Shown piece by piece: positions 1 through 35,822 of a stretch of DNA of 36,413 nt (position 1 is its first letter; every line of letters begins with the position of its first letter). The notes below the pieces were generated by a model that made no database searches, was not told the origin of the DNA, and was given only the letters and a program-made list of their open reading frames with translations. Location of the stretch: positions 1 to 36,413 of the IMG/VR virus record IMGVR_UViG_3300032373_001203. One strand, 5' to 3'. This DNA comes from a virus (taxonomy: Duplodnaviria > Caudoviricetes). A program made the translations under genes and the position numbers.

Positions 1-1239
1 TCACTCCTTGGCACCGAGAAGTGCCTGATATTCTTCCAGCTTGGTAATGGCGGCTTGGGCCATGGGGTACGTTGTGACCGTGTAAGTTTCGATGATGGTA
101 TCGACGCTTTTTTCCGTGTGTCCTGTAATGGCAGCCACTTGACGTTTGGTGCATCCAGCTTCGTACAGGCGGATAACAGCCGTACGGCGCAGGTCGCGTC
201 GCTGCAATCCACGCGCACGTAACCCGCAAGCGTTTGACACGGCATCCCACCGCGACGCGAAATAACGCGCCTTGAAGGGCTGCCCATCGTGGGTACGCAA
301 GAGCGGGCCGTGTGCGATGTTTTGCTCGCGCAGCCTTTTTACCAGTGCGTCTAGGGTGGGCTTAAATTGTGTGTGAACAGGTATCCACACCCGTGCGCCA
401 GTTTTTTGCTGATAGACGTTGATTTTTTCCCCGTCGTAGTCGGCAAGCGTCATGTTCAACATATCGCCTGGGCGCTGCCCGGTGTACGTCAGTAGGGCAT
501 GAGCAAAAGCCATTGCGGGCTCCACCCGCCACTGCGGAATACGCCCCTCTCGCAGTTCCCAAAATCCACGTTGGGCGACCTCCGAGAACAGGGCTTCCTC
601 CTCATATGTCCAATATTGCCGTCTGGATTTAATACCTTCCTTTCTGCCAAACGCAGATACAGCACTACAGGGGTCCCATTTGAGGCCGAAAGTGACAGAG
701 TTTTTGCAGGCCACCTTAATCATGACCTTCACAACCGCAAGAATCTGGTTGGCCTTGTAGGGGGTGTCGATAAAGCTTTCATGCAATGCCGCCACGGCTT
801 CTGTGGTCAGGTCGCAAACCTGAAAATGCCCCCAACGCTTAAGGATGGTGTTGTCGATGTTGTTGCCATAGTCGTAGGCGGTTTTTTCCTTAAGGCGCGC
901 CCACTCACGAGATGGGCGGACATTCCGCGCTTCATTACCACGATAAACCTCTGCCAGATGGACAAAGGTGCCGGGCGGAGGTGGCACGCTCTTATCTTGG
1001 ATGTTTTTTATTTTGAGTTCAGATTCTTGATTGCGGGCATCCACAAAATTTTTAAATTGAGGCGAGAGAGGATCTTTATATGGGATGCGCATGCGCTCAA
1101 GCATGGGCGGCACGGAATAGTACAAAACGCGGTCGACCTTGCGCTTGTTGTGGCGGACAACACGCTTCACGTATTTGTGCTTAATGGTCACTTTCATGGG
1201 CCGACCCCTTTGCGGCATGAACCAACGCCGCTCTGTCAT
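1..1239 (-). CDS. int: Tyrosine recombinase / phage integrase
   Basis: Catalytic-type motifs TGQRPGD (R), QQKTG (K), RDLRRT (HxxR position), ITGHT and a C-terminal Tyr. The start could be 1218 or 1197. Confidence 0.93.
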   Translation of the reverse strand: MTERRWFMPQRGRPMKVTIKHKYVKRVVRHNKRKVDRVLYYSVPPMLERMRIPYKDPLSPQFKNFVDARNQESELKIKNIQDKSVPPPPGTFVHLAEVYRGNEARNVRPSREWARLKEKTAYDYGNNIDNTILKRWGHFQVCDLTTEAVAALHESFIDTPYKANQILAVVKVMIKVACKNSVTFGLKWDPCSAVSAFGRKEGIKSRRQYWTYEEEALFSEVAQRGFWELREGRIPQWRVEPAMAFAHALLTYTGQRPGDMLNMTLADYDGEKINVYQQKTGARVWIPVHTQFKPTLDALVKRLREQNIAHGPLLRTHDGQPFKARYFASRWDAVSNACGLRARGLQRRDLRRTAVIRLYEAGCTKRQVAAITGHTEKSVDTIIETYTVTTYPMAQAAITKLEEYQALLGAKE

Positions 1240-2412: not shown

Positions 2413-3540
2413 TCACCCCGCCATACGCATGATAAATTTGTCCACGTCGGGGCACGTGTCTGCGAGCACCGTTATGGGTTTGTTCGTGTCGGAATCGACA
2501 TAGAGGGTGACGGTGTCGGCGTTGATGCGCTCAAGCCATCCTAAAAATTGCACTTGCTTGATGGAGGCCGCTGGCGGTTTGCCTAACACTTCTGCGGGGA
2601 TGTCGTCCCTATATTCGTCGCCACCTTCGCCCGCGGCGCACAGGAAAATGCCGCTTTCGGTGTGCGATAAGGTGACGATGGGATGCAGCTTGTCCAAAAC
2701 CACACCGGCGCGCTTGAGCGCATCGCGCAAAACCGTTGCGTTCACTCGGTAGCCGGTGTCGGTGTCCGCGCGCGGTAGGCTTTCGTAGGCTGGAAAGCGC
2801 GCATCGATGAGCTTTGAGACCATCGCGCGCGATCCGCACTCCATACGGACGAGACGGTCGCTGGTGAACAGGCGGGCGGCTCCATCCCAACCGTCCAAAA
2901 CGCTGAGCATTGCGGGGATGGAGGCGTCAGGCAACAGCACGCCGGGAAATCCTCCATTGATGTTGGGCAGGGCGACATCGTCCGCGGCACCCAAGGCAAT
3001 ATCGACCAACTGGTAAAAATCCTGCGCGACGATGCGCAGCACGCCGTCGCGGACATGAAAAAACTCACCGGCGGAATGCACCCGCTCGCCGTGCTTGCTT
3101 TTGTACATGTCGCCTTGGGCGAGACGCATGGCGTCGTGCAACGACTTGGCGGACACCTCCCAAGGCTCCACCTCGACCTCGCGAATGAGGGGAAACTCGG
3201 TATCGGGCAGCACTCGCAACTTGAACGAAGAGCGCCCTGCGCGCACGGCGGCGACCGGCGCGCCGCTTGTGTGCTCGACCTCAATCAGCGCGCCTTCGGG
3301 GCTGCCCAAAACCGCGTTTTGCAGTTGGGCATGATTAACGAGTGCGGTTCCGTCTTCACCGTCGTGCATTTCGAGGCTTTGAGTACACCATATGTCCATG
3401 TTGGTGCACGTAACGTCCAAGACGCCTGCGCGGACAACGAGGCACACCTGCTCCAATACCGCCAAAGTGGATTTGGCGCGGGCCTTGCCCACATAGGCCA
3501 GCGCGGACGCCAGCGCAGCGCGTTCTATTACAATTTTCAT
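2413..3540 (-). CDS. dnaN: DNA polymerase III beta sliding clamp homolog
   Basis: 375 aa from MKIVIERAAL; motifs TNMDI, GRSSFKLRVLPDTEFP and SKLIDARFPAY are characteristic of DnaN; ATG overlaps the upstream stop. Confidence 0.9.
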   Translation of the reverse strand: MKIVIERAALASALAYVGKARAKSTLAVLEQVCLVVRAGVLDVTCTNMDIWCTQSLEMHDGEDGTALVNHAQLQNAVLGSPEGALIEVEHTSGAPVAAVRAGRSSFKLRVLPDTEFPLIREVEVEPWEVSAKSLHDAMRLAQGDMYKSKHGERVHSAGEFFHVRDGVLRIVAQDFYQLVDIALGAADDVALPNINGGFPGVLLPDASIPAMLSVLDGWDGAARLFTSDRLVRMECGSRAMVSKLIDARFPAYESLPRADTDTGYRVNATVLRDALKRAGVVLDKLHPIVTLSHTESGIFLCAAGEGGDEYRDDIPAEVLGKPPAASIKQVQFLGWLERINADTVTLYVDSDTNKPITVLADTCPDVDKFIMRMAG

Positions 3541-3995
3541 AAGCCCCTGTCCTTTTGCTTCACCATCTTCGCCACGTATTCGCGCACATCGTGCAACCAG
3601 TTTTGGTTCGCACCGGGCCAGTAGAGTTCGACGCCCCAGTCTTCGTCTTCCGAGGTGTCGCCGCACGTCGAGCCCTGAAACGCCCAAAGGTCGGGGTTCT
3701 CAAACAGGGCGAGCATTTTGTTTCTTGCGCGGGGCGTGAGGTTCGCCAGCTCCTGGGCGGCGGGCATGGGAGGGAGGTTTTCCAGCCACTCGGCCCAATC
3801 GCGGGCCCTTTCTTCGCCATGCTCAAAGATGTCGGGCTTGTCGCGGTTCAATCCCCACAACGGGTCGTGATGTTCGCGCACGCATGCACCCAAGCGCCCA
3901 AACGGCATGTCGGCAAAGGCTTGCAGCTCTTCGGTCGTGTAAGGACCACCCGTGTCGGGGTAGGACAACTCCATCTGAGAGGGGAGACGGCTCAT
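3537..3995 (-). CDS. Hypothetical phage protein (152 aa)
   Basis: Coupled ATGA overlaps on both sides; globular composition. Confidence 0.75.
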   Translation of the reverse strand: MSRLPSQMELSYPDTGGPYTTEELQAFADMPFGRLGACVREHHDPLWGLNRDKPDIFEHGEERARDWAEWLENLPPMPAAQELANLTPRARNKMLALFENPDLWAFQGSTCGDTSEDEDWGVELYWPGANQNWLHDVREYVAKMVKQKDRGL

Positions 3996-4357: not shown

Positions 4358-4600
4358 TCACATGCCCAGCGCGCGCTTGTAGACGTCGAGAATGTCTTCG
4401 AGTTCTTGGCGCTCCGACACATCCATTTTGCGCAGACCGACAATGGTGCGGAGGATTTTGACGTCGAAGCCGGTGCCCTTGGCTTCGGCATAAACTTCGC
4501 GAATGTCCGCCGCCAACGCGGCCTTTTCTTCTTCCAATCGCTCGATGCGTTCGACGAAAGAGCGCAAGCGGTCGCCGCCAATCCCTCCAACGTCAGTCAT
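4358..4600 (-). CDS. gapR: GapR-like nucleoid-associated protein (DUF2312)
   Basis: [42 protein letters not shown]...[10 protein letters not shown] matches the GapR family signature. Confidence 0.95.
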
Positions 4601-4820
4601 AGCGCGCACCGTTGCGATTTTCGTGAACCAGTGCCCTTTGTGCGCTGTCGAGGCGTTTCACGGCCTCTCCAAAGGTCGAATACAGTGGCGTCAGGTCGTC
4701 GTCGTGGTCGGTCGCCAGTGCGACGCACAGAAATTCGGAAGTGCTGAGCGAATTCGTCACGGCGTCGAAATCGCCGCCGCTCAAGATGGCGTCAATGGCG
4801 TCTTGCTCTCGTTCGTTCAT
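4593..4820 (-). CDS. Hypothetical protein, first gene of the leftward early operon
   Basis: ATG with AAGGGA RBS; overlaps the gapR start. Confidence 0.7.
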
Positions 4821-4973: not shown

Positions 4974-5024
4974 ATCACAGAAAAATGTGATACAGTCCAG
5001 TTGCAAATCACAGAAAAATGTGAA
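4974..5024. promoter_or_regulatory. Left operator pair (PL-like): ATCACAGAAAAATGTGAT and ATCACAGAAAAATGTGAA
   Basis: Two near-identical 18-bp dyads (ATCACA-N6-TGTGAT) at 4974-4991 and 5007-5024, upstream of the leftward operon; the same motif occurs between the repressor and cro. Confidence 0.85.
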
Positions 5025-5141: not shown

Positions 5142-5492
5142 ATGAAGCTCATCTTTTCGAACATGATTAACCGTCCCCTGTTGCGACTTTGCGCTTGGGC
5201 CACGGCTATGCCCGTTTTGATTTTGGCGGTTGTGATATTTGCGGGGGACGCGGAGGCCGCGGTTCGCTTGCGCGCATGTCATGGCGGCAGCTGCTCAGTA
5301 ACGTGGCTGGGCTGGCTGAGCTTGGCGCTGGGCGGGGTTTGCGTCGCAGGTGGCTTCTTCGACCCCATTACCCGCTTTATCGGGGAAGAGGGTGAACAGC
5401 ACGCGGTGGGCAGTGCGCTCAACAAAACCCGCATATGGTCGTTGGCGGCGGGTGTGATGTTGATGGGCTTCGCGGGTTACGCTTTGCTGTAA
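5142..5492 (+). CDS. Membrane protein (about 3 hydrophobic segments), cargo gene
   Basis: GGAG RBS, ATG start, hydrophobic helices; convergent with the nuclease gene. Confidence 0.7.
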   Translation: MKLIFSNMINRPLLRLCAWATAMPVLILAVVIFAGDAEAAVRLRACHGGSCSVTWLGWLSLALGGVCVAGGFFDPITRFIGEEGEQHAVGSALNKTRIWSLAAGVMLMGFAGYALL

Positions 5493-5514
5493 TTTCTCGT
5501 CTGCGGGGGGGAGG

Positions 5515-6297
5515 CTATAGGCTATTGCTCCATGCCATGAACTGCCCTAAATCCATGACATCGATGCGTTTGCCGTCCGGCGCATGTGCAGCTGCGCGGC
5601 GCAACCATGCGACCGCACCGGGACGCCAGCCGGGGCCGTCAATGACGATAACGACACGCTGTTCTGGAATGGCGGCGGAGGTGGCGGCATTGACGAACAA
5701 ATAGGGCAGCTTTTCGTCGGTCGAGCCTCGCGATTGCTGCCATTTGGCTTCGATACGAATATCGGCGGACAGGCGTGGGGATTTCAGCACGAACTCGGTC
5801 CGTCCCTTGCCCCCGTAAATGGTGGTGTAGGGGGCATCCAGAAGCAACAGGTGCTCTGGGTGTGCTGCGGGGTCTTTGGCCCAGTCGCGATGACGTACGG
5901 GGGAAAACCCCCGCGCGCTCAATGTTGTCTCGATGATGCGTTCCAAGGATTGACCGTGGAGGGCGGCGTTTGCCTTGTTCGGCGGTATGGCGGTGGGAGC
6001 AGGACGAACCTTCGGGGTTACCCCGGCGGCCAGGGCCCCACTCAGTGCGGGACGATTGTCGAAGTCGGATCCGCGTGTGGGTAAATTGGGTGCGGTGGCG
6101 TATCCCGCCCAAAATGCCCCCAGCAATACGCCGACCATGACACTCCATCGCAGTCCGCGATGCGCCAGGATGCGCTTTATCGGATGCGGTTTGAGCGCAT
6201 CGGCAAAGATTTGGCGCACTTCGTCTTCGATGTTTTCGTTGGACGGCCTGGTTTTGGCATCTTGGCCATAATGAGAGGTCCCACCCTTGTGTTGCAT
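5515..6297 (-). CDS. PD-(D/E)XK restriction-endonuclease-like protein with an N-terminal transmembrane helix
   Basis: C-terminal domain GQSLERII...GRTEFVL...IRIEAKWQQSRGSTDEKLPY...VIVIDGPGW; TM WSVMVGVLLGAFWAGYAT followed by a Pro/Ala-rich linker. Confidence 0.8.
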   Translation of the reverse strand: MQHKGGTSHYGQDAKTRPSNENIEDEVRQIFADALKPHPIKRILAHRGLRWSVMVGVLLGAFWAGYATAPNLPTRGSDFDNRPALSGALAAGVTPKVRPAPTAIPPNKANAALHGQSLERIIETTLSARGFSPVRHRDWAKDPAAHPEHLLLLDAPYTTIYGGKGRTEFVLKSPRLSADIRIEAKWQQSRGSTDEKLPYLFVNAATSAAIPEQRVVIVIDGPGWRPGAVAWLRRAAAHAPDGKRIDVMDLGQFMAWSNSL

Positions 6298-6336
6298 GAT
6301 TTGTACCCCTATACAGTCATAGTTGAATACAGGAAC

Positions 6337-7164
6337 ATGCGGACGATTTCAAACATGACAGACCCCTTTTTACGTTGGCCGGGCGGGAAGCGCCGCCTGT
6401 TGGGCGAACTGCGTCAGCATATGCCGGAAACCTACAAGGGTTACTTCGAGCCGTTCATCGGCGGTGGTGCGCTGTTTTTGGCGGAACGCCCGGACTACGG
6501 CTACATAGGCGACGCCAACCCCGAACTCGCCAACGTCTACAATGTGGTCAAGCACAAGCCCACTCAACTCATTGCGGAACTGGCCCTCCACCGCAACACG
6601 GCGAAAGACTATTACAAAGTGCGCCAAGCGGACCGGGACGCGGATTTCACCGGGTGGTCTGACGTGCGCCGTGCGGCGCGGTTCGTGTTTCTCAACCGCA
6701 CATGCTTCAATGGCTTGTGCAGGATGAATGCCAAAGGGCAGCTCAATATGGCTTACGGGCGGCTGAAAAACCCGGACATCACCCAGGCGCGCGCCATCTG
6801 GGCGGCGCACGCGACGTTGCGCCGGGTGCGTATCGCGCATGCGTCTTTCGATGAGGTGTTGAAGTTGGCTCGTCCTGGCGACTTCGTTTATTTTGACCCG
6901 CCCTATGTTCCGTTGAGCCCTACGGCCAACTTTACCGACTACGCCGCCGGCGGCTTCGGCGCGGATAAACACCGCGAGTTGTGGCAGTTGTGCGTCAAAT
7001 TGCACCGCCGCGGCATCAAGTGGATGGTGTCGAATTCTCGCACGCCCCAGGTGCTCGATTTGTGGCGGGCGTTCACCACCCACGAAATCGATGCCCGGCG
7101 CACCATCGCAGCGGGCCCCAAGGGGCGCGGGCGCGTTAAAGAGGTTTTGGTGACGAATTACTGA
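6337..7164 (+). CDS. dam: Dam/DpnM-family (D12 class) DNA adenine methyltransferase
   Basis: PFLRWPGGK, YFEPFIGGGALF, LNRTCFNGLCRMN, FVYFDPPY, MVSNS, KEVLVTNY; alternative start at 6355. Confidence 0.93.
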   Translation: MRTISNMTDPFLRWPGGKRRLLGELRQHMPETYKGYFEPFIGGGALFLAERPDYGYIGDANPELANVYNVVKHKPTQLIAELALHRNTAKDYYKVRQADRDADFTGWSDVRRAARFVFLNRTCFNGLCRMNAKGQLNMAYGRLKNPDITQARAIWAAHATLRRVRIAHASFDEVLKLARPGDFVYFDPPYVPLSPTANFTDYAAGGFGADKHRELWQLCVKLHRRGIKWMVSNSRTPQVLDLWRAFTTHEIDARRTIAAGPKGRGRVKEVLVTNY

Positions 7165-7585
7165 CGGCCATATCCAGCATCATACTGGCCGTGGCTTTGT
7201 CGAAAGGTGTATTGCGCTTGCTGAACTGTTCGTAAAGTACGAGGGCCAAATTGGCGGTGCTCTCAGGCGGCAACACAATGGCGTGCTCATCCATAAAGTG
7301 TAGCGTCGCTGCAATACAATCGCGCATCAAATAGCGCGCATGTTTGACTTTTTCGCCGGTTAGAAGATATTCGCTCGTGGTGCCGAGAAGCTTTGCCGCG
7401 CGGGATATTTCGCGAGTCGGAAGCAGCGAGCGGTTTTCGTACTTGGCGTAAATGCCAATCGGCATACCCAGCTTATCGGCCATGTCTTGTTGCGAAAGCT
7501 TTGCCGCCTTGCGCGCCGTTTGGAGGCGCTCTCTAAACTCGCACCGATATTGTTCGGCTACTTGGGGCGGTTTGTCGGGCATCAT
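7136..7585 (-). CDS. XRE-family HTH repressor (second)
   Basis: RLQTARKAAKLSQQDMADKLGM...YAKYEN...LGTTSEYLLTGE is a classic HTH_3; no S24 peptidase domain. Confidence 0.9.
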   Translation of the reverse strand: MMPDKPPQVAEQYRCEFRERLQTARKAAKLSQQDMADKLGMPIGIYAKYENRSLLPTREISRAAKLLGTTSEYLLTGEKVKHARYLMRDCIAATLHFMDEHAIVLPPESTANLALVLYEQFSKRNTPFDKATASMMLDMAVSNSSPKPL

Positions 7586-7587
7586 CG

Positions 7588-8073
7588 CTACGTATTGTCA
7601 ACCGCAAGCTGGATGTAGTCGGTTACGGTTTGCTCGTCTGCGGTGGTTTCGCCCGCACGGCTGAACCGCTTGTAGAGCAGGGCAACGGCACGGGCCTTTT
7701 TATCGTTGGGCAGGGTTCTGTTGCTGCTTTTCAGCGCGGTGTCCACAGATGACATGATGGATGCCAGCAAGTCACTGTCGATGGGGCCTGCATCCATGAG
7801 GCTGCCCGCACCCGGGGGGATTTCACCCAACAATTCACCGATGGGGCGCTCTATGGCGCGGGCGAGACTTTCCAGCACTGGAACGGATAGAGAATCCGCA
7901 TCACCGTTCAGAAAACCATAGAGCTGATTTGGCGTGCTGAGCCCCGCCTTGCGCGCCCAAGACGCGGCTTGCAGACTGTAATGGGTCATAAACGCGCGTA
8001 GCGCGGCACGGCGCGCATCGGCGCGGGCCTTGGGTACGTGCTCATGGGTGGTTGATGCTGCCGTTTCGCTCAT
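7588..8073 (-). CDS. HTH repressor (CI-like, first)
   Basis: AASWARKAGLSTPNQLYGFLNGDADSLSVPVLESLARA HTH; divergent from the cro-like gene. Confidence 0.85.
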   Translation of the reverse strand: MSETAASTTHEHVPKARADARRAALRAFMTHYSLQAASWARKAGLSTPNQLYGFLNGDADSLSVPVLESLARAIERPIGELLGEIPPGAGSLMDAGPIDSDLLASIMSSVDTALKSSNRTLPNDKKARAVALLYKRFSRAGETTADEQTVTDYIQLAVDNT

Positions 8074-8107
8074 ATCCCCAAGTTGCCCCAAACCTTTTCC
8101 ACACGCG

Positions 8108-8157
8108 ATAACATAAATCTGTTATTTGCCGTATTGACCATCACATTTTAATGTGAT
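8108..8157. promoter_or_regulatory. Right operator pair / PR-PRM switch: ATAACATAAATCTGTTAT and ATCACATTTTAATGTGAT, with TTGACC -35 box
   Basis: Dyads at 8108-8125 and 8140-8157 between the divergent HTH genes; TTGACC at 8134-8139. Confidence 0.85.
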
Positions 8158-8167
8158 GTTTTGAGGC

Positions 8168-8419
8168 ATGGATACAAACGCCACACCGCATAGCGTTGAC
8201 GACGTCATTGCACGCATCCGCGCGTACAAGCTGCACACAGGCCGGCGCAGAAGCGTTCTCGCCTTGGATGCGGGCCTATCCGTTAATGCGCTACGCGACA
8301 TGGACGACCCGGAGTGGAGCCCCACAGCCGACACCTTGCGCCAATTGGAGAAAATCGTTCCCAAAGGCTTCACGGTGGCGGGTGCGGCGGGCCGGAGCGC
8401 GCTTATCGCGACGCCCTAA
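8168..8419 (+). CDS. Cro-like HTH protein
   Basis: SVLALDAGLSVNALRDMDDPEWSPTADTLRQLE; small protein divergent from the repressor. Confidence 0.8.
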   Translation: MDTNATPHSVDDVIARIRAYKLHTGRRRSVLALDAGLSVNALRDMDDPEWSPTADTLRQLEKIVPKGFTVAGAAGRSALIATP

Positions 8420-9360: not shown

Positions 9361-9661
9361 TTTGAGCCTCAAGGATTCCAACCCCACCCGGCACACACGA
9401 ACGAAGCAGACGCCGCCGCCCTTGAGCAAATGTGCCGTTTCGGTGGTGCGCACGGCGTCCGGCGCGGCGCTTGTGCCATCGCCCCGCCAAGCCCTGGCGG
9501 ACTACACGCCCCACGCCTGCCAATACATCGAAGGCGAAGCCAAATCGCGCCGCGCCAAAGGCGACGCCATTTTTTGCGGCAAGCCGGTTGTGAAAGACGA
9601 GAGCTGGTGCGCCGAGCATCTGGCACGGTGTCGCATCAAAAAACAGGCGGGTGATGAATAA
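9353..9661 (+). CDS. GcrA C-terminal-domain-like protein
   Basis: CQYIEG...FCGKP...SWCAEH matches the C/C/C/H pattern of the GcrA C-terminal domain; the N-terminal HTH is absent. Confidence 0.7.
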   Translation: MPSLSLKDSNPTRHTRTKQTPPPLSKCAVSVVRTASGAALVPSPRQALADYTPHACQYIEGEAKSRRAKGDAIFCGKPVVKDESWCAEHLARCRIKKQAGDE

Positions 9662-11256
9662 TGCTGGTTTACGGTTCCGTCTGCTCCGGTATCGAGGCCG
9701 CCACCCAAGCGTGGAGGTCTTTGGGATGGAAATGCGCGTTCGTGTCGGAAATCGAGCCGTTTCCCCAAGCCGTATTGCGCCATCACATGGGTTGCAACAC
9801 GCTCGCGCGGTCGCGCAAACGCAAGAGCACACCCCGCAAATCCGGCGGCGTGCCGAATTTGGGCGATTTTACGGGCATCCGCCCCCACTGGTTGAGAAGG
9901 ATGGGAATTGACCCAACAACGATTGACGTTCTCGTCGGAGGAACCCCCTGTCAAAGCTTTTCCTGCGCGGGACAGCGAGGCGGATTGGATGATGTCCGTG
10001 GTGAACTCACCATTGAGTTTTTTCGCCTTGCTGACAGAATGCGGACCTTATGGCTGGTCTGGGAAAACGTCCCCGGCGTCCTGTCCATCGACAAAGGCGA
10101 AACTTTCGCGGAAATCCTTGGGCTTCTCACCGCATACCGTCCCGAGGTCCCAAAAAACGGGTGGCGCAATTCCGGCGTGTGCCACGGTCCCGGGCCTTAC
10201 GGCGTCGCATGGCGAGTGCTTGACGCTCAGTACTTCGGCGTGGCCCAGCGCCGCAAGCGTCTGTTTCTTGTCGGATATCTTGGAGACTGGCGACGTGCCA
10301 CCGCGGTACTTTTTGAGCGCGAAAGCCTGTGCAGGCATCCTACGCCGCGCCGAGAAGCGGGGGCGGGAGTTGCCGGAACTCTTGAAGCGCGCGCTTCAAC
10401 AGGTGGCTTTGACCCAGGAGCCCACGGAGCCGCAACCGGATACCTCCAAGCCGTAGGCATCGACGGAACCGGAGAAGTCGGACACGCCTTGACGGCGAGC
10501 CGGACGGCGACTGGACGCATGGACCCGGACGGTCAAACCTTTGTGGCCCGGGTCGCGCCAACAATTAGCAGCCGCGCTTCGTATGACCGCGGCGACGGAA
10601 GTGAGCCAATCGTAGCTCACACCTTGCGCGGCGAAGGCCTCGACGCCAGTGAGGATGGGACGGGACGGGGAACGCCGCTGGTTCCTATCGCCATTCAGGA
10701 GCGCGCAGGGTGCGAAAATCCCAATGCAGGACCGGGCGGCAAGGGCTTTCGTGACGATGGGTTGGCCTACACGTTGGAGGCGCGCCAAGTGCCGCAGGCC
10801 ATCGCCTTCGATTGTAAGGCCAGCGCCTCATTTATGCCCCGGCCCATGGAAGAAATCGCGCCGACCATGCGGGCGATGAACAGCGTGACCGGCAATCAAA
10901 ACGCCGGTGGCCAGTTGGCGGTCGCGGTGTCGCTGCGCGGTCACGACGGCGGTGCCACGGCTGAACTTGGCGGCGAAGTTTGCCCCGCCATGCGCACAGG
11001 TGGAGGGGGCGGCGATAAGCCGCATGTTCTGAGCGATATGGCGGTGCGCCGCCTGATGCCCCGCGAGTGCGAACGTTTGCAAGGGTTCAAAGACAATTAC
11101 ACCGCCATCCCTTGGCGCGGAAAGCCCGCCGACGAATGTCCTGACGGTCTGCGCTACAGGGCCATTGGAAATTCAAAAGCCGTCCCCGTGGTGCGGTGGA
11201 TTGGCGAACGCATAGAACGTGTCAATCGGTTGGCGGGTGATAGGGGGGCACCATGA
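9661..11256 (+). CDS. DNA (cytosine-5) methyltransferase with an expanded variable region
   Basis: Motifs SVCSGIEA (I), GGTPCQSFS (IV), WENVPG (VI), AQRRKR (VIII), RRLMPRECERLQGF (IX), YRAIGNS (X). Confidence 0.95.
   Translation: MLVYGSVCSGIEAATQAWRSLGWKCAFVSEIEPFPQAVLRHHMGCNTLARSRKRKSTPRKSGGVPNLGDFTGIRPHWLRRMGIDPTTIDVLVGGTPCQSFSCAGQRGGLDDVRGELTIEFFRLADRMRTLWLVWENVPGVLSIDKGETFAEILGLLTAYRPEVPKNGWRNSGVCHGPGPYGVAWRVLDAQYFGVAQRRKRLFLVGYLGDWRRATAVLFERESLCRHPTPRREAGAGVAGTLEARASTGGFDPGAHGAATGYLQAVGIDGTGEVGHALTASRTATGRMDPDGQTFVARVAPTISSRASYDRGDGSEPIVAHTLRGEGLDASEDGTGRGTPLVPIAIQERAGCENPNAGPGGKGFRDDGLAYTLEARQVPQAIAFDCKASASFMPRPMEEIAPTMRAMNSVTGNQNAGGQLAVAVSLRGHDGGATAELGGEVCPAMRTGGGGGDKPHVLSDMAVRRLMPRECERLQGFKDNYTAIPWRGKPADECPDGLRYRAIGNSKAVPVVRWIGERIERVNRLAGDRGAP
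9908..10456 (+). CDS. Putative overlapping +1-frame ORF inside the C5 MTase (beta-polypeptide-like)
   Basis: 182 codons open in the +1 frame, TTG start after AAGGA/GGGA; contains GECLTLSTSAWPSAASVCFLSDILETGDVPPRYFLSAKACAGILRRAEKRG. Confidence 0.55.
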   Translation: MTQQRLTFSSEEPPVKAFPARDSEADWMMSVVNSPLSFFALLTECGPYGWSGKTSPASCPSTKAKLSRKSLGFSPHTVPRSQKTGGAIPACATVPGLTASHGECLTLSTSAWPSAASVCFLSDILETGDVPPRYFLSAKACAGILRRAEKRGRELPELLKRALQQVALTQEPTEPQPDTSKP

Positions 11257-12698
11257 CCGTGCGCATCCTCATCGGTGACGTATTTGACCGCTTGGCGGGC
11301 TTGGACGCCGAAAGCGTGCATTGCTGCGTGGTTTCGCCGCCTTACTGGGGCCTGCGCGATTACGGTGTCGAAGGGCAAATCGGGTTGGAGCCGACGATGG
11401 GTGAGCATCTGGACGTGATGGTGCGGGTGATGCGCGAGGTACGCCGGGTTTTGCGTCCCGACGGCACCGTGTGGCTGAACTATGGCGACTGTTACGCAAC
11501 TCAGCCCAATGGCCGCAGCGCGGCGGACACCAACGACCTGAGCCCAGACGACCGCACCTTCCGCGATAAGCCGTTTTCCACTGTCGGCGCGGTGTTGGGC
11601 TCATCTGATGCCGACGCCAAACGCTCGCAAAATGGTTATGAGGCATATAGGCCATCTCACGGTAATCGCGTGGTCGCGGGTGGATACCTTAAGCCCAAAG
11701 ACCTCTGCATGGTGCCCCAGCGCCTCGCCATCGCCCTGCAAGACGACGGTTGGTGGGTGCGTTCTGAAATCATCTGGCACAAACCCAACCCGATGCCCGA
11801 AAGCGTGAGCGACCGTCCCGTTTCTGCCAACGAAAAGGTGTATCTGCTCACCAAATCGGAGAGGTATTTCTACGACGCCGAAGCGGTGCGCGAAAAAACC
11901 GATGAGAAACCGACACTCAATGCCGAGAACCCGGGCGGTCAAAAATACTCGTTCAAACGGGCCAACTCAAAGCGGGCCGAAGCCCACCCCGGCCAGAGTG
12001 AGGGCACCCACCGGGCGGACCGCGAAGACATCGATTATTGCGGCACCCGCCACCCCCGCAACGTCTGGACCATCGCCACACGCCCGTTTCGCGTCGAAAT
12101 GTGCACGATATGTAGGTATGTATACCTAAATGAGCAGCTCGGGCTTATCCGCGTTGAAACCTACAAAGACGACAAGGGCGTCGAGCGCAAACGCAAGTTC
12201 TGTACCTGTGGGGCGCACGATGCGTGGTTAAGCCATTTTGCCACGTTTCCACCCGCGCTGGTCGAACCGTGCATCCGTGCGGGCACGTCGGAGTACGGCG
12301 TGTGTTCCGAGTGCGGTGCACCCTATGAGCGCATCGTCGAAAAAGTCCATGAGGACGGCGGCGCGGTGCAGTCGGGACAAGCGTCGGCGCTGAAATTCGG
12401 GGCCACACCGGAGAAAGGCGGTACGTACAAGCGGCTCATCACCCGCACGGTGGGCTGGCGGGCGACGTGTGCGTGCGGTGAACATACACAGGTTGGCGCA
12501 CCGGTCCCTGCGACCGTTCTGGACCCGTTCGGCGGGGCGGGCACGGTGGGCTTAGTGGCGCGGGCACTGCAACGCCGTGCAGTGCTAATAGAGTTGAACC
12601 CAAACTACGCCGCCATCGCTCGTAAACGCATCCATGAGGCTGAGCCACTGTTCAATCCGGTGTCGGTTTTTTCCTATCGGGGAGAGGCCGCAGAATGA
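11253..12698 (+). CDS. Beta-class N4-C/N6-A DNA methyltransferase with Cys-rich insertions
   Basis: VVSPPY precedes VLDPFGGAGT; IIWHKPNPMPES, HFATFP; CxxC/CxCG pairs. Confidence 0.93.
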   Translation: MTVRILIGDVFDRLAGLDAESVHCCVVSPPYWGLRDYGVEGQIGLEPTMGEHLDVMVRVMREVRRVLRPDGTVWLNYGDCYATQPNGRSAADTNDLSPDDRTFRDKPFSTVGAVLGSSDADAKRSQNGYEAYRPSHGNRVVAGGYLKPKDLCMVPQRLAIALQDDGWWVRSEIIWHKPNPMPESVSDRPVSANEKVYLLTKSERYFYDAEAVREKTDEKPTLNAENPGGQKYSFKRANSKRAEAHPGQSEGTHRADREDIDYCGTRHPRNVWTIATRPFRVEMCTICRYVYLNEQLGLIRVETYKDDKGVERKRKFCTCGAHDAWLSHFATFPPALVEPCIRAGTSEYGVCSECGAPYERIVEKVHEDGGAVQSGQASALKFGATPEKGGTYKRLITRTVGWRATCACGEHTQVGAPVPATVLDPFGGAGTVGLVARALQRRAVLIELNPNYAAIARKRIHEAEPLFNPVSVFSYRGEAAE

Positions 12699-33985: not shown

Positions 33986-34207
33986 TTACGCGCCCGTTGC
34001 TGCGATGATGTCAGCATCGGTCGCGGCGCTGTTTGTTGCCTCGGTGTTCTCGAAAGCACGGTCTATTACCTGCTGAACTTCCATAGGTTCAACGGTCGCC
34101 ATGCGGCTGCGGTCGCAATACCGAACTACCGCTTGCCGTAGCAGTTCTATCTCGGCGTCGCGGTCTGCGATGAAGCCGCGATACATTTTTAAATCTTGGT
34201 CATTCAT
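33986..34207 (-). CDS. Hypothetical phage protein
   Basis: GGAGG RBS and ATG. Confidence 0.7.
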   Translation of the reverse strand: MNDQDLKMYRGFIADRDAEIELLRQAVVRYCDRSRMATVEPMEVQQVIDRAFENTEATNSAATDADIIAATGA

Positions 34208-34220
34208 GGTTCAAACCCTC

Positions 34221-34418
34221 CTAATCTTCCATCGCTAAAGACAGGCGAAATTCGTGTACCCAAAGTTCTTTAGCGGTCCCCGCGTCGAACCATTCAACGC
34301 AATATAGGGGTGCGCTATCAGGTTTTATTTGCGCGGTAGTGACAATCGTCACTAGGTCTTTGTCGCCATCAACAAGGACGTGATCCTTAGGCAAAAATTT
34401 GATTTCAACTGTTCGCAT
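34221..34418 (-). CDS. Hypothetical phage protein (small beta-barrel-like)
   Basis: GGAGG RBS and ATG; YCVEWFDAG motif. Confidence 0.7.
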   Translation of the reverse strand: MRTVEIKFLPKDHVLVDGDKDLVTIVTTAQIKPDSAPLYCVEWFDAGTAKELWVHEFRLSLAMED

Positions 34419-34430
34419 CGTTGCCCCCTC

Positions 34431-34721
34431 CTAACCGCGCGGCTGCTTTTTCCGCTTGCGCATTTCTTCCGGGGTCACAATTGTGCCGTTAGTTGCGCAC
34501 CACGACAGACAGCCAAGTTCGGGCTTAGTCCAGTCCCCATCTTCAAAAGCGCAAATCCCGTCCACCAAAAACTTGTCCGTCAATTCGGGATGGGTGGTTA
34601 GGATCGACACGAACTGGCCCGCAAGTTCAGAACTTGAGACGCCCGCATGCCAAGCCACATCAGTTGCAATTTCGGCAATGCGTTTGATGGCTTGCGCTGG
34701 CGTTAGGTCTGTTCTTCTCAT
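34431..34721 (-). CDS. Hypothetical phage protein
   Basis: GGAGG RBS; tightly packed with neighbours. Confidence 0.7.
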   Translation of the reverse strand: MRRTDLTPAQAIKRIAEIATDVAWHAGVSSSELAGQFVSILTTHPELTDKFLVDGICAFEDGDWTKPELGCLSWCATNGTIVTPEEMRKRKKQPRG

Positions 34722-34735
34722 AGTCAAAATCCCTC

Positions 34736-35236
34736 CTAGCCGAACAGCGGCATGGGTGCCGGTTCGGGTTCTGATTTTTGTTTCGTCTTGCGGGTCGGCT
34801 CATTCGGCCAAGCCACCATCCAGGGCTTGGGCGCGTCCAGTTCGCCACTCTCTTGCCACTTGAAATAGCCAAGCTGGCCGACTGCCGGGATTGGATCGAC
34901 GGCAAGGTGATCGGCCAACACCAACCCACGCGGCCCAAAGAACCAGGGGCTTTCGTGTGCGCTCACAATCTCTGTGACGGTCACAATTCCAATGATCCCG
35001 CCGCGCACCAACTTGTCAGGGCGCGGGACAGTGAGGCCGGAAGTCTTTTCGATGAAATGGCCGTCGCAATCGTATTCGTCCTGCGTCATGCCCTTGCTGG
35101 CGTGGATGCAGATACGGCGCGGCTTCATGCCATAGCGCACGGCGGCGGCGCTGCGGTTCTCAATATCCTTGTGAGCGTGGATGATTGCCCAGGCCCACGG
35201 TTGTTTCACTGACAGGGCGATTTCTGGCAAGTCCAT
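34736..35236 (-). CDS. ASCH-domain protein
   Basis: ALSVKQPWAWAII...KDIENR...IHASK...RGGIIG...SPWFFGP...GQLGYF. Confidence 0.88.
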   Translation of the reverse strand: MDLPEIALSVKQPWAWAIIHAHKDIENRSAAAVRYGMKPRRICIHASKGMTQDEYDCDGHFIEKTSGLTVPRPDKLVRGGIIGIVTVTEIVSAHESPWFFGPRGLVLADHLAVDPIPAVGQLGYFKWQESGELDAPKPWMVAWPNEPTRKTKQKSEPEPAPMPLFG

Positions 35237-35297
35237 GTTCGTTTCTCCATCCGTAACCGAGATGCCATAACGCGGCGTCAAACGGGCGGGTTGTAAA

Positions 35298-35654
35298 TCA
35301 GTCGTTTACGTCCTGTGCGTCGTCTTTGGCCGGGGTGTCGGTTTGGGACGTTTGTTCCGCGATAGCGGTCCTAAGGTTTTCAGGTGTGAAAATACCTAAG
35401 CCGTTGTTGAGGTCGAACTTCATGAAGTCGATCAACAGCGCTTCGATTTCCTTGGTGTATTTTTTGTCGTCTGGCGTGATGTCGTTGCCTCTCTGGTCTT
35501 CGCAAAGACACGCGTCCGACGTCCCGCGATTATTGCGGGCCGTAATGTGCTGTCCTGAATTCGAAGTGATCGCGCGCGCAGGATGTGCGTCGGACGATTG
35601 AGGCGGGAAGGGGACTCCCACCGCCCTTTCACGGCGGCAACAGGGGAAAGACAA
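35298..35654 (-). CDS. Hypothetical protein, start uncertain (only the C-terminal ~60 aa look coding)
   Basis: C-terminal part is protein-like; a GAGAGG RBS precedes an ATC rather than an ATG, so it may be a pseudogene. Confidence 0.35.
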   Translation of the reverse strand: MSFPCCRRERAVGVPFPPQSSDAHPARAITSNSGQHITARNNRGTSDACLCEDQRGNDITPDDKKYTKEIEALLIDFMKFDLNNGLGIFTPENLRTAIAEQTSQTDTPAKDDAQDVND

Positions 35655-35776
35655 AAAGCGTTTCCAAAACGAGTGGTGTGTGGTGCCGTTTGATGGTGCG
35701 TCGTGGTCACAACATTGGAAACGAAAGAGAGATAAAATATATTTGCATCACGGCATTGGCGTTTTTTGCTCAAATA

Positions 35777-35822
<46 letters not shown>

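Follow-up and report, generated by a model that had tools for sequence, protein, structure and literature searches.

The 36,413-nt stretch of IMG/VR record IMGVR_UViG_3300032373_001203, analysed here at its full length and called the window below, represents a temperate phage whose host is an alphaproteobacterium. It carries a nuclease of the PDDEXK_11 family with an N-terminal export signal or membrane anchor and, reading away from it on the opposite strand, a methylase of the Dam family (Table 1). The nuclease and the methylase are separate, adjacent genes, as in a Type II restriction-modification (R-M) system. The cassette is real and recurrent, and it is apparently an undescribed variant of Type II R-M.

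The nuclease and the methylase

The Pfam model PF20472 (PDDEXK_11) matches residues 113-259 of the nuclease (E 5e-37; 127.3 bits against a gathering score of 23.7; model positions 4-143 of 145), and this region holds the motifs TEF (167-169), IEAKWQ (182-187) and GSTDEK (191-196). The predicted catalytic residues E119, E168, E183 and K185 are the majority residues at their positions in 148, 152, 158 and 137, respectively, of 170 family proteins, and the window nuclease and most of its group keep all four. When 163 family domains were aligned to seven DpnII-family proteins using hhalign, 121 columns in the C-terminal half matched with the four motifs in register (probability 86.8, E 4.2e-6). 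The alignment covers only residues 149-272 of the 291 in DpnII, and the nuclease has a glutamate where DpnII has an aspartate. A Pfam scan returns PF20472 only; the nuclease falls outside PF04556, the DpnII family, because the N-terminal part is missing. Neither a PADLOC model nor an NCBIfam or PHROG family matches it.

The structure model places most of the domain at a predicted local distance difference test (pLDDT) score above 90. The solved structure that the model resembles best is BstEII (Z 10.6, root-mean-square deviation 3.6, 131 aligned residues), followed by Can2, Bax1 and BspD6I, and its structural neighbours in the Atlas include DpnII and Tsp45I clusters (TM about 0.7). Foldseek gave no match at E 0.001, the best having E 2.7e-3, and no PDB sequence matched the nuclease profile. 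Judged from its sequence, the domain is a PD-(D/E)XK fold homologous to the catalytic half of DpnII, and its activity is predicted.

The domain is preceded by a hydrophobic stretch, W51-A69, with the basic residues K41, R42, H46, R47 and R50 ahead of it and a Pro/Ala linker after it. This organization had been described in a first-pass annotation, made from the sequence before the present analysis, and the residues bear it out. It had also found no in-frame ATG or GTG between helix and domain; this is correct, and there is no TTG either. The in-frame starts closest to the helix are ATG54 and TTG58, both inside it, and the next is a TTG at L118 in the first conserved helix of the domain. A soluble isoform from an internal start was considered and rejected, since the linker has no start codon. 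The predicted cytoplasmic tail is conserved, with residues 23-50 identical to the nearest relative, P0002, at 21 of 28 positions and the motif recurring in P0004, which supports the long start; the model predicts a helix at residues 20-35. The charge is +4/-0 before the helix and +2/-2 after it, and in both P0002 and P0004 it is +5 before and 0 after. The helix itself has only moderate hydrophobicity, with a best Kyte-Doolittle mean of 1.38 over 19 residues and a crude insertion sum of +1.1, and therefore both a cleaved signal and an anchor are possible. A sigma-70 scan found nothing above chance and no consensus promoter in the 39-bp spacer.

The methylase is matched by PF02086 (E 2e-55) and TIGR00571 (248.5 bits against a cut-off of 114.85) hidden Markov models (HMMs), and its closest solved structure is DpnM (2dpm, E 2e-64). 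Its start is either the ATG at 6337, 39 bp from the ATG of the nuclease, or the one at 6355, 57 bp away, so that the divergent pair with about 40 bp between the starts reported by the first-pass annotation holds. In E. coli Dam the GATC-reading residues are K9, L122, R124 and P134. The window methylase keeps the first three in its GATC hairpin, and alanine replaces P134. Proline was found at this position in 129 of the 132 hairpins read, and alanine or glycine in all five full-length Dams of the divergent layout included in a tree. No paper on Dam P134G was found in the literature. The related tetramers GAAC, GACC and GAGC are not strongly depleted in the window (ratios 1.08, 0.85 and 1.06).

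Family-wide distribution, dam linkage and export

PF20472 is a large family without annotation, with 1192 clusters at E up to 0.001. Its soluble members often carry the source name '4-diphosphocytidyl-2C-methyl-D-erythritol kinase'; the literature searched yielded no paper that names PDDEXK_11 or PF20472. A search of 50,697 phage records with the nuclease gave no match, and among plasmids there was one soluble, dam-linked copy. The soluble cellular copies come from 310 genome and 281 metagenome loci, of which the best 80 each were taken, minus four signal-bearing loci and the window's own, near-duplicates being kept. In 139 of these 155 loci a methylase, Dam-like in 128 and beta-class in 11, lies directly upstream in tandem, and none of the 139 has the divergent layout. 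The remaining 16 have no methylase, 10 of them with less than 1.1 kb of context. In soluble forms the domain is preceded by about 10-14 residues; these proteins keep their cysteines and are encoded in tandem operons, and their layout is that of an ordinary Type II system. The 11 loci with a beta-class N6/N4 methylase in place of Dam include L085, L088, L039 and L069.

A hydrophobic N-terminal signal or anchor, judged by simple hydropathy and charge scales, was found in 30 of the 170 family proteins. Most of these N-termini are short, with a basic residue, a hydrophobic core and an AxA-like site, and in 23 of the 30 the charge is more positive before the hydrophobic segment than after it. Mis-called starts were rejected as the source of the signals: a signal-like start is seen in 30 different sequences, and on the tree the catalytic domains cluster in keeping with the presence of a signal. 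For two of the signal-bearing proteins the source gives the name Magnetospirillum. A tree built from 35 chosen rows puts the window in a group of 12 rows that all carry signals (support 96/92), beside one long form and two forms with short signal peptides (99/96). Forcing all 16 signal rows into one group, a grouping informed by earlier trees, was rejected (approximately unbiased (AU) test, p 0.0005), and export therefore arose more than once. There is no cysteine in 28 of the 30 signal-bearing domains against 16 of 133 others, a contrast that includes the middle residue of E-x-K; the loss fits an oxidising compartment. A second signal-bearing and cysteine-free group with altered E-x-K motifs is made up of P0070, P0117, P0146, P0182 and P0183.

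A cleaved Sec signal leaves the attached domain outside the cytoplasm. The relatives with short signal peptides are for this reason the strongest argument for an N-in/C-out orientation. The first-pass annotation had predicted this orientation for the window nuclease, and the prediction gains from the charge bias, from the cleavable-looking signals of the closest relatives and from the cysteine loss, but the window helix is marginal. Homologues lacking the membrane segment, which it had named as evidence against its reading, do make up most of the family, but they form a separate, operonic group and leave export in the window's group unrefuted.

All nine signal-bearing copies with known context adjoin dam, seven divergently (the window, G001, G002, G003, G118, G149 and G1044) and two in tandem (G164 and G004). 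The first-pass annotation had proposed a search for homologues that keep both the membrane segment and the Dam linkage; these nine copies have an N-terminal signal or anchor together with the linkage. The dam gene is intact in eight of the nine loci. The five full-length Dams of the divergent copies form one group (Shimodaira-Hasegawa-like approximate likelihood ratio test 92), the split matches that of the nuclease tree, and the two genes co-descend. In G002 the cassette occupies the same slot of a related prophage; its dam is frameshifted and internally deleted beside a nuclease that looks whole, and no full D12 gene was found in this incomplete genome. G149 presents the reverse case, with altered catalytic positions in the nuclease. 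In G164 (L214:8060-10018) dam stands between an upstream C-terminal nuclease fragment and a downstream full signal-bearing nuclease, possibly a trace of rearrangement between the two layouts.

G001 is recorded as Magnetovibrio, G002 as Magnetospira and G003 as Rhodospirillales. The cassette is rare (6 of 401 within the order; 1 of 401 in a class-wide sample, the centre genome only). The cassette is not an exclusion gene confined to prophages: at least five of the nine exported copies have ordinary cellular genes around them, and no phage genes were seen in their vicinity. The first-pass picture of a gate cutting unmethylated DNA at the envelope is supported in part; it comes out stronger in its export reading and its Dam link, but without the third gene it had included (see below). 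ComEC is encoded in three of five hosts but also in 10 of 14 controls and is uninformative, and a dprA gene lying about 2 kb from one copy was taken to be coincidental.

GATC avoidance and the proposed site of action

GATC is the most depleted 4-mer in the window. Positions 1-34000 of the prophage hold eight GATC sites against 113.4 expected, while eight alphaproteobacterial phage controls of 20 kb each have ratios of 0.83-1.12. The second prophage, G002, has a ratio of 0.52 against 1.13 in its host flank. Around the exported copies the host DNA is not depleted (0.84-1.13 in six alphaproteobacterial host stretches). For a comparison among phages, 33 viral nuclease loci were grouped into 20 distinct phages. 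Nine of the 13 nuclease-carrying phages without dam have no GATC at all, against none of the seven with dam (Fisher p 0.005, the nine representing about three lineages). In a 10-row clade within one lineage, the six nuclease carriers are all free of GATC and the four others, in one of which the slot is not visible, all have it. From these genomic counts, GATC is the likely target of the nuclease.

Some further counts were noted along the way. Seven of the window's 16 GATC sites lie at 34001-35776, beside the att repeat (ratio 0.8 versus 0.07 elsewhere), in a region that was likely gained recently and whose open reading frames (ORFs) have no Pfam match. GANTC is also depleted in the window, at about 0.3 of expected, and so are several 6-base palindromes, among them GGCGCC (5/32) and AGGCCT (2/12). 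The phage loci L002, L004, L007-L012, L014-L017, L020-L025 and L031-L033 have a soluble PDDEXK_11 gene, no dam-like gene seen and zero GATC (11-35 expected per locus), the match lying near 5000 in full-length loci. Several of these phages have replication gene clusters of the large lytic type; the nucleases of this set are possibly phage-borne restriction enzymes aimed at host DNA. In the sister phage L248 the corresponding slot, flanked by a conserved 324-aa gene and the next large gene of replication type, is occupied by an unlike gene of 178 aa (1256-1789, + strand) without a Pfam match, possibly another nuclease in an exchangeable slot; this locus has zero GATC and zero CCGG.

The reading we tentatively favour, with a probability somewhat short of even, is that the cassette is an R-M system in two compartments, with a DpnII-like nuclease and Dam forming a methylation-sensitive restriction gate that faces the periplasm. 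The Dam-type methylase would mark GATC in the cytoplasm, and the nuclease, predicted to be exported, would act in the periplasm on double-stranded DNA that comes in without the mark. In this prophage and two relatives the nuclease is probably tethered by an N-in/C-out helix; most of the window's exported group has a cleavable-looking signal peptide. DNA from a cell that bears the cassette, whether kin chromosome or phage progeny, would be methylated and pass. The nuclease would cut foreign DNA that is unshielded in the periplasm, as in competence uptake, delivery by gene transfer agents (GTAs) or infection by phages whose transfer step is exposed. The family, fold match, motifs, signal-like N-termini, dam linkage, co-descent and GATC counts are observations; we infer the topology, the GATC specificity, the block by methylation and the expression in the lysogen. 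According to the available parts of the sources cited here and below, both transforming DNA (PMC12378983) and GTA DNA (PMC6473078) pass through the periplasm. A wider proposal, which is possible but more doubtful, is that the R-M system is split across the inner membrane with the reader of the kin mark in the periplasm, a minimal DpnII-like enzyme cutting foreign phage, GTA or transforming DNA ahead of its entry and sparing that of kin and sibling phages; that export arose more than once; and that PF20472 as a whole is an unrecognised compact GATC restriction family, used without a methylase by some lytic phages after a purge of GATC from their genomes.

Several points weigh against the periplasmic gate. 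The nuclease domain is without the N-terminal part of about 145 residues found in DpnII, and its specificity may differ or be absent; a reverse search with single HMMs was weak (E 0.002-0.07 on seven DpnII sequences). Predicted catalytic residues are lost in several exported copies (L215, P0065, P0047 and P0070). The signals were called on simple hydropathy and charge scales only, and on these scales the window helix is marginal. The cysteine contrast is at clade level, its rows are not independent, and the G004 copy, which bears its signal independently, keeps two cysteines. The broken dam of G002 may be an artefact of an incomplete assembly. GATC avoidance extends beyond the nuclease carriers: of 26 sister phage loci in which no nuclease is visible, 15 also have zero GATC, in records that are 6-48% complete, and only two independent pairs stand on supported branches (sign test p 0.5). 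Retention of dam and avoidance of GATC are predicted by a cytoplasmic cutter as well. Many tailed phages shield their DNA across the periplasm, and an anti-phage role is not assured.

An ordinary cytoplasmic Type II R-M system with a membrane tether or leaky export, in which the domain or a non-exported fraction of it faces the cytoplasm and Dam protects the chromosome, is unlikely. It would account for the presence of dam in all nine loci and its integrity in eight, for the GATC depletion of both prophages and for the marginal helix of the window. It also has a precedent in SNIPE, a single-pass inner-membrane nuclease that attacks DNA at entry and faces inward (PMC13190303). SNIPE combines GIY-YIG and DUF4041; PhoA-LacZ fusions put its N-terminus in the periplasm and the nuclease on the cytoplasmic side, and it discriminates by place, not by modification (PMC13190303). 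The window nuclease differs in being linked to a methylase and in the reverse topology predicted from its charge bias, and only PF20472 was found in it, with no GIY-YIG or DUF4041 domain and no PADLOC match. The positive-inside bias of all three long forms, the short signal peptides with AxA-like sites in the nearest relatives and the cysteine loss in the exported group speak against a cytoplasmic domain. A cytoplasmic cutter should also not tolerate what is seen in G002, a broken dam and an intact-looking nuclease in a host whose GATC is undepleted, as it is in all six host stretches.

A non-specific exported DNase that blocks transformation or scavenges DNA, with dam as a relic or as an anti-restriction methylase of the element, is improbable. 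Mobile elements do carry periplasmic DNases against transformation (PMC12378983). IdeA and SxnA of Vibrio integrative and conjugative elements and Dns of the Campylobacter prophage CJIE1 degrade transforming DNA, acting in the periplasm or extracellularly, and the available part of the source names no methylase partner for them (PMC12378983). The absence of the DpnII N-terminal part and the one broken dam would agree with such a function. However, the window domain is restriction-like and co-descends with Dam, the two trees splitting alike. Dam has stayed next to the nuclease in both gene arrangements and through the origins, at least two, of the signal (AU p 0.0005), and the GATC pattern of the family tracks whether dam is present. 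A further single-pass membrane nuclease linked to phage resistance, Mpr of Mycobacterium smegmatis, is a non-specific, methylation-independent exonuclease unrelated to known nucleases (PMC9262609, available part).

It is very unlikely that export merely stores the nuclease away from DNA until the envelope is breached by superinfection or lysis, when unmethylated DNA would be destroyed and Dam-marked self spared. Such storage accounts jointly for export and for the need for Dam, and it fits the strong loss of GATC if replicating phage DNA is incompletely methylated at lysis, but no sensor or import partner is conserved beside the nuclease, and chromosomal copies without nearby phage genes have the same arrangement. 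A periplasmic DNA-binding or methylation-sensing protein that does not cut, or a cassette in decay, is highly improbable: altered catalytic positions in several exported copies, one broken dam and one locus with an extra nuclease fragment point that way, but the window protein and most of its group keep the four predicted catalytic residues, and the window domain is identical to that of P0002 at 137 of 152 positions, against 19 of 38 in the linker.

The system closest to the cassette is DpnII/MboI, in which PF04556 nucleases are paired with DpnM/Dam and DpnII cuts unmethylated GATC. Shared features are the order of the catalytic motifs, the adjacent genes, a methylase nearest to DpnM and a genomic GATC signal. 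The window nuclease differs in its domain of about 150 aa, which lacks the N-terminal part and is not matched by PF04556, and in its export signal, and the cassette differs in its divergent genes and in the P134 to alanine change of the methylase. The soluble PDDEXK_11 systems share domain and dam linkage, but have no signal, keep their cysteines and form tandem operons. No exported restriction enzyme with a cognate methylase was found by title or abstract in a literature search that left most subscription papers outside, and in the available part of a 2026 short review of anti-phage nucleases the word periplasm is absent (PMC12904381).

The available sources attribute methylation-based discrimination between self and non-self to enzymes of the cytoplasm; the envelope nucleases compared here are non-specific or face inward. 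If the periplasmic gate is real, a reader of methyl marks in the periplasm would act as a kin filter on gene flow, blocking foreign DNA and keeping exchange among relatives, and a prophage could favour its own progeny. The cassette also offers a direct test of which phages have their DNA exposed in the periplasm as it is injected. For PF20472, a large unannotated family, the analysis gives a specific prediction, namely a GATC endonuclease of 150 residues.

The prophage and its immunity region

The first 12,297 bases of the window are identical to part of the 119,831-base contig L114. The att-like repeat at the right of the window is common to this contig's tRNA-Lys gene, and the element is therefore an integrated prophage. 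No close relatives of the phage were found among viral contigs by terminase or repressor, so that the slot can be compared with that of one other prophage only. One DNA run has contigs across the cassette; their main pieces over nuclease and dam show no differences, and no joint skipping the cassette was seen among them. A low-depth allele of the N-terminal tail of the nuclease has nine changes, five of them at third codon positions, and no stop, which is weak evidence.

Table 1. Features of the prophage and its nuclease-dam cassette (positions in the window; aa, residues of the nuclease)
Feature	Position	Strand	Remarks
PDDEXK_11 nuclease	5515..6297	-	260 aa; N-terminal export signal or anchor
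aa 1-50	6148..6297	-	predicted cytoplasmic tail; conserved helix aa 23-35; basic patch aa 41-50
aa 51-69	6091..6147	-	hydrophobic helix; signal anchor or signal-peptide h-region; predicted N-in/C-out
aa 70-108	5974..6090	-	Pro/Ala linker; low model confidence; no start codon
aa 109-260	5518..5973	-	PD-(D/E)XK domain, DpnII-like; predicted catalytic E119, E168, E183, K185; no cysteine
Divergent spacer	6298..6336	.	39 bp, AT-rich; GGGG ribosome-site-like run before nuclease ATG; no GATC
Dam/DpnM-family N6-adenine methyltransferase	6337..7164	+	intact FxGxG and DPPY motifs
Integrase	1-1239		
Sliding-clamp (DNA polymerase III beta) homologue	2413-3687	-	
GapR-like gene	4358-4609		
Two operator-like palindromes	4975..5023	.	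TCACAGAAAAATGTGA twice, upstream of left arm; likely left operator (OL), role suggested by lambdoid layout
116-aa hydrophobic ORFan	5142..5492	+	about 3 hydrophobic stretches (hydropathy); same slot, outside conserved cassette
Helix-turn-helix (HTH) regulators	7136-8091		terminase and capsid genes further right
XRE-type HTH regulator	7136..7585	-	convergent with dam, overlaps dam end; not seen at corresponding place in second prophage
Likely CI-like repressor	7588..8091	-	51% identical homologue follows dam in second prophage
Operator-like palindrome	8141..8156	.	before cro-like gene (8168-8419); likely right operator (OR)
att-like repeat	35777..35822	.	46 bp; identical to one end of tRNA-Lys gene at other prophage end, L114

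Palindromes of the form TCACA-N6-TGTGA match four times in the window, against 0.11 expected by chance. Those at 4975, 5008 and 8141 bracket the cassette, suggesting that it lies inside a lambdoid immunity region, and they agree with the first-pass placement between the left promoter PL and the repressors. The fourth is at 34963. In lambda, rexAB occupies a comparable place within the immunity region, with the left operators on one side and the repressor on the other. The likeness to rexAB is one of position only; neither the nuclease nor the small gene has a PHROG family.

This small gene is the third membrane gene of the first-pass annotation. It is present in the slot and hydrophobic as stated, but it is not part of the cassette: it has no homologue and was found beside no other nuclease copy, and it was rejected as a third component. 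A homologue search returned only the gene itself, one further search gave no match of 0.9 or more, and no Pfam, NCBIfam or PHROG family scored over its cut-off, no direct comparison with the Rex proteins having been made. Further right, in the early right operon, positions 9661-11256 and 11253-12698 encode a C5-type and an N4/N6-type methyltransferase, respectively, each with long insertions.

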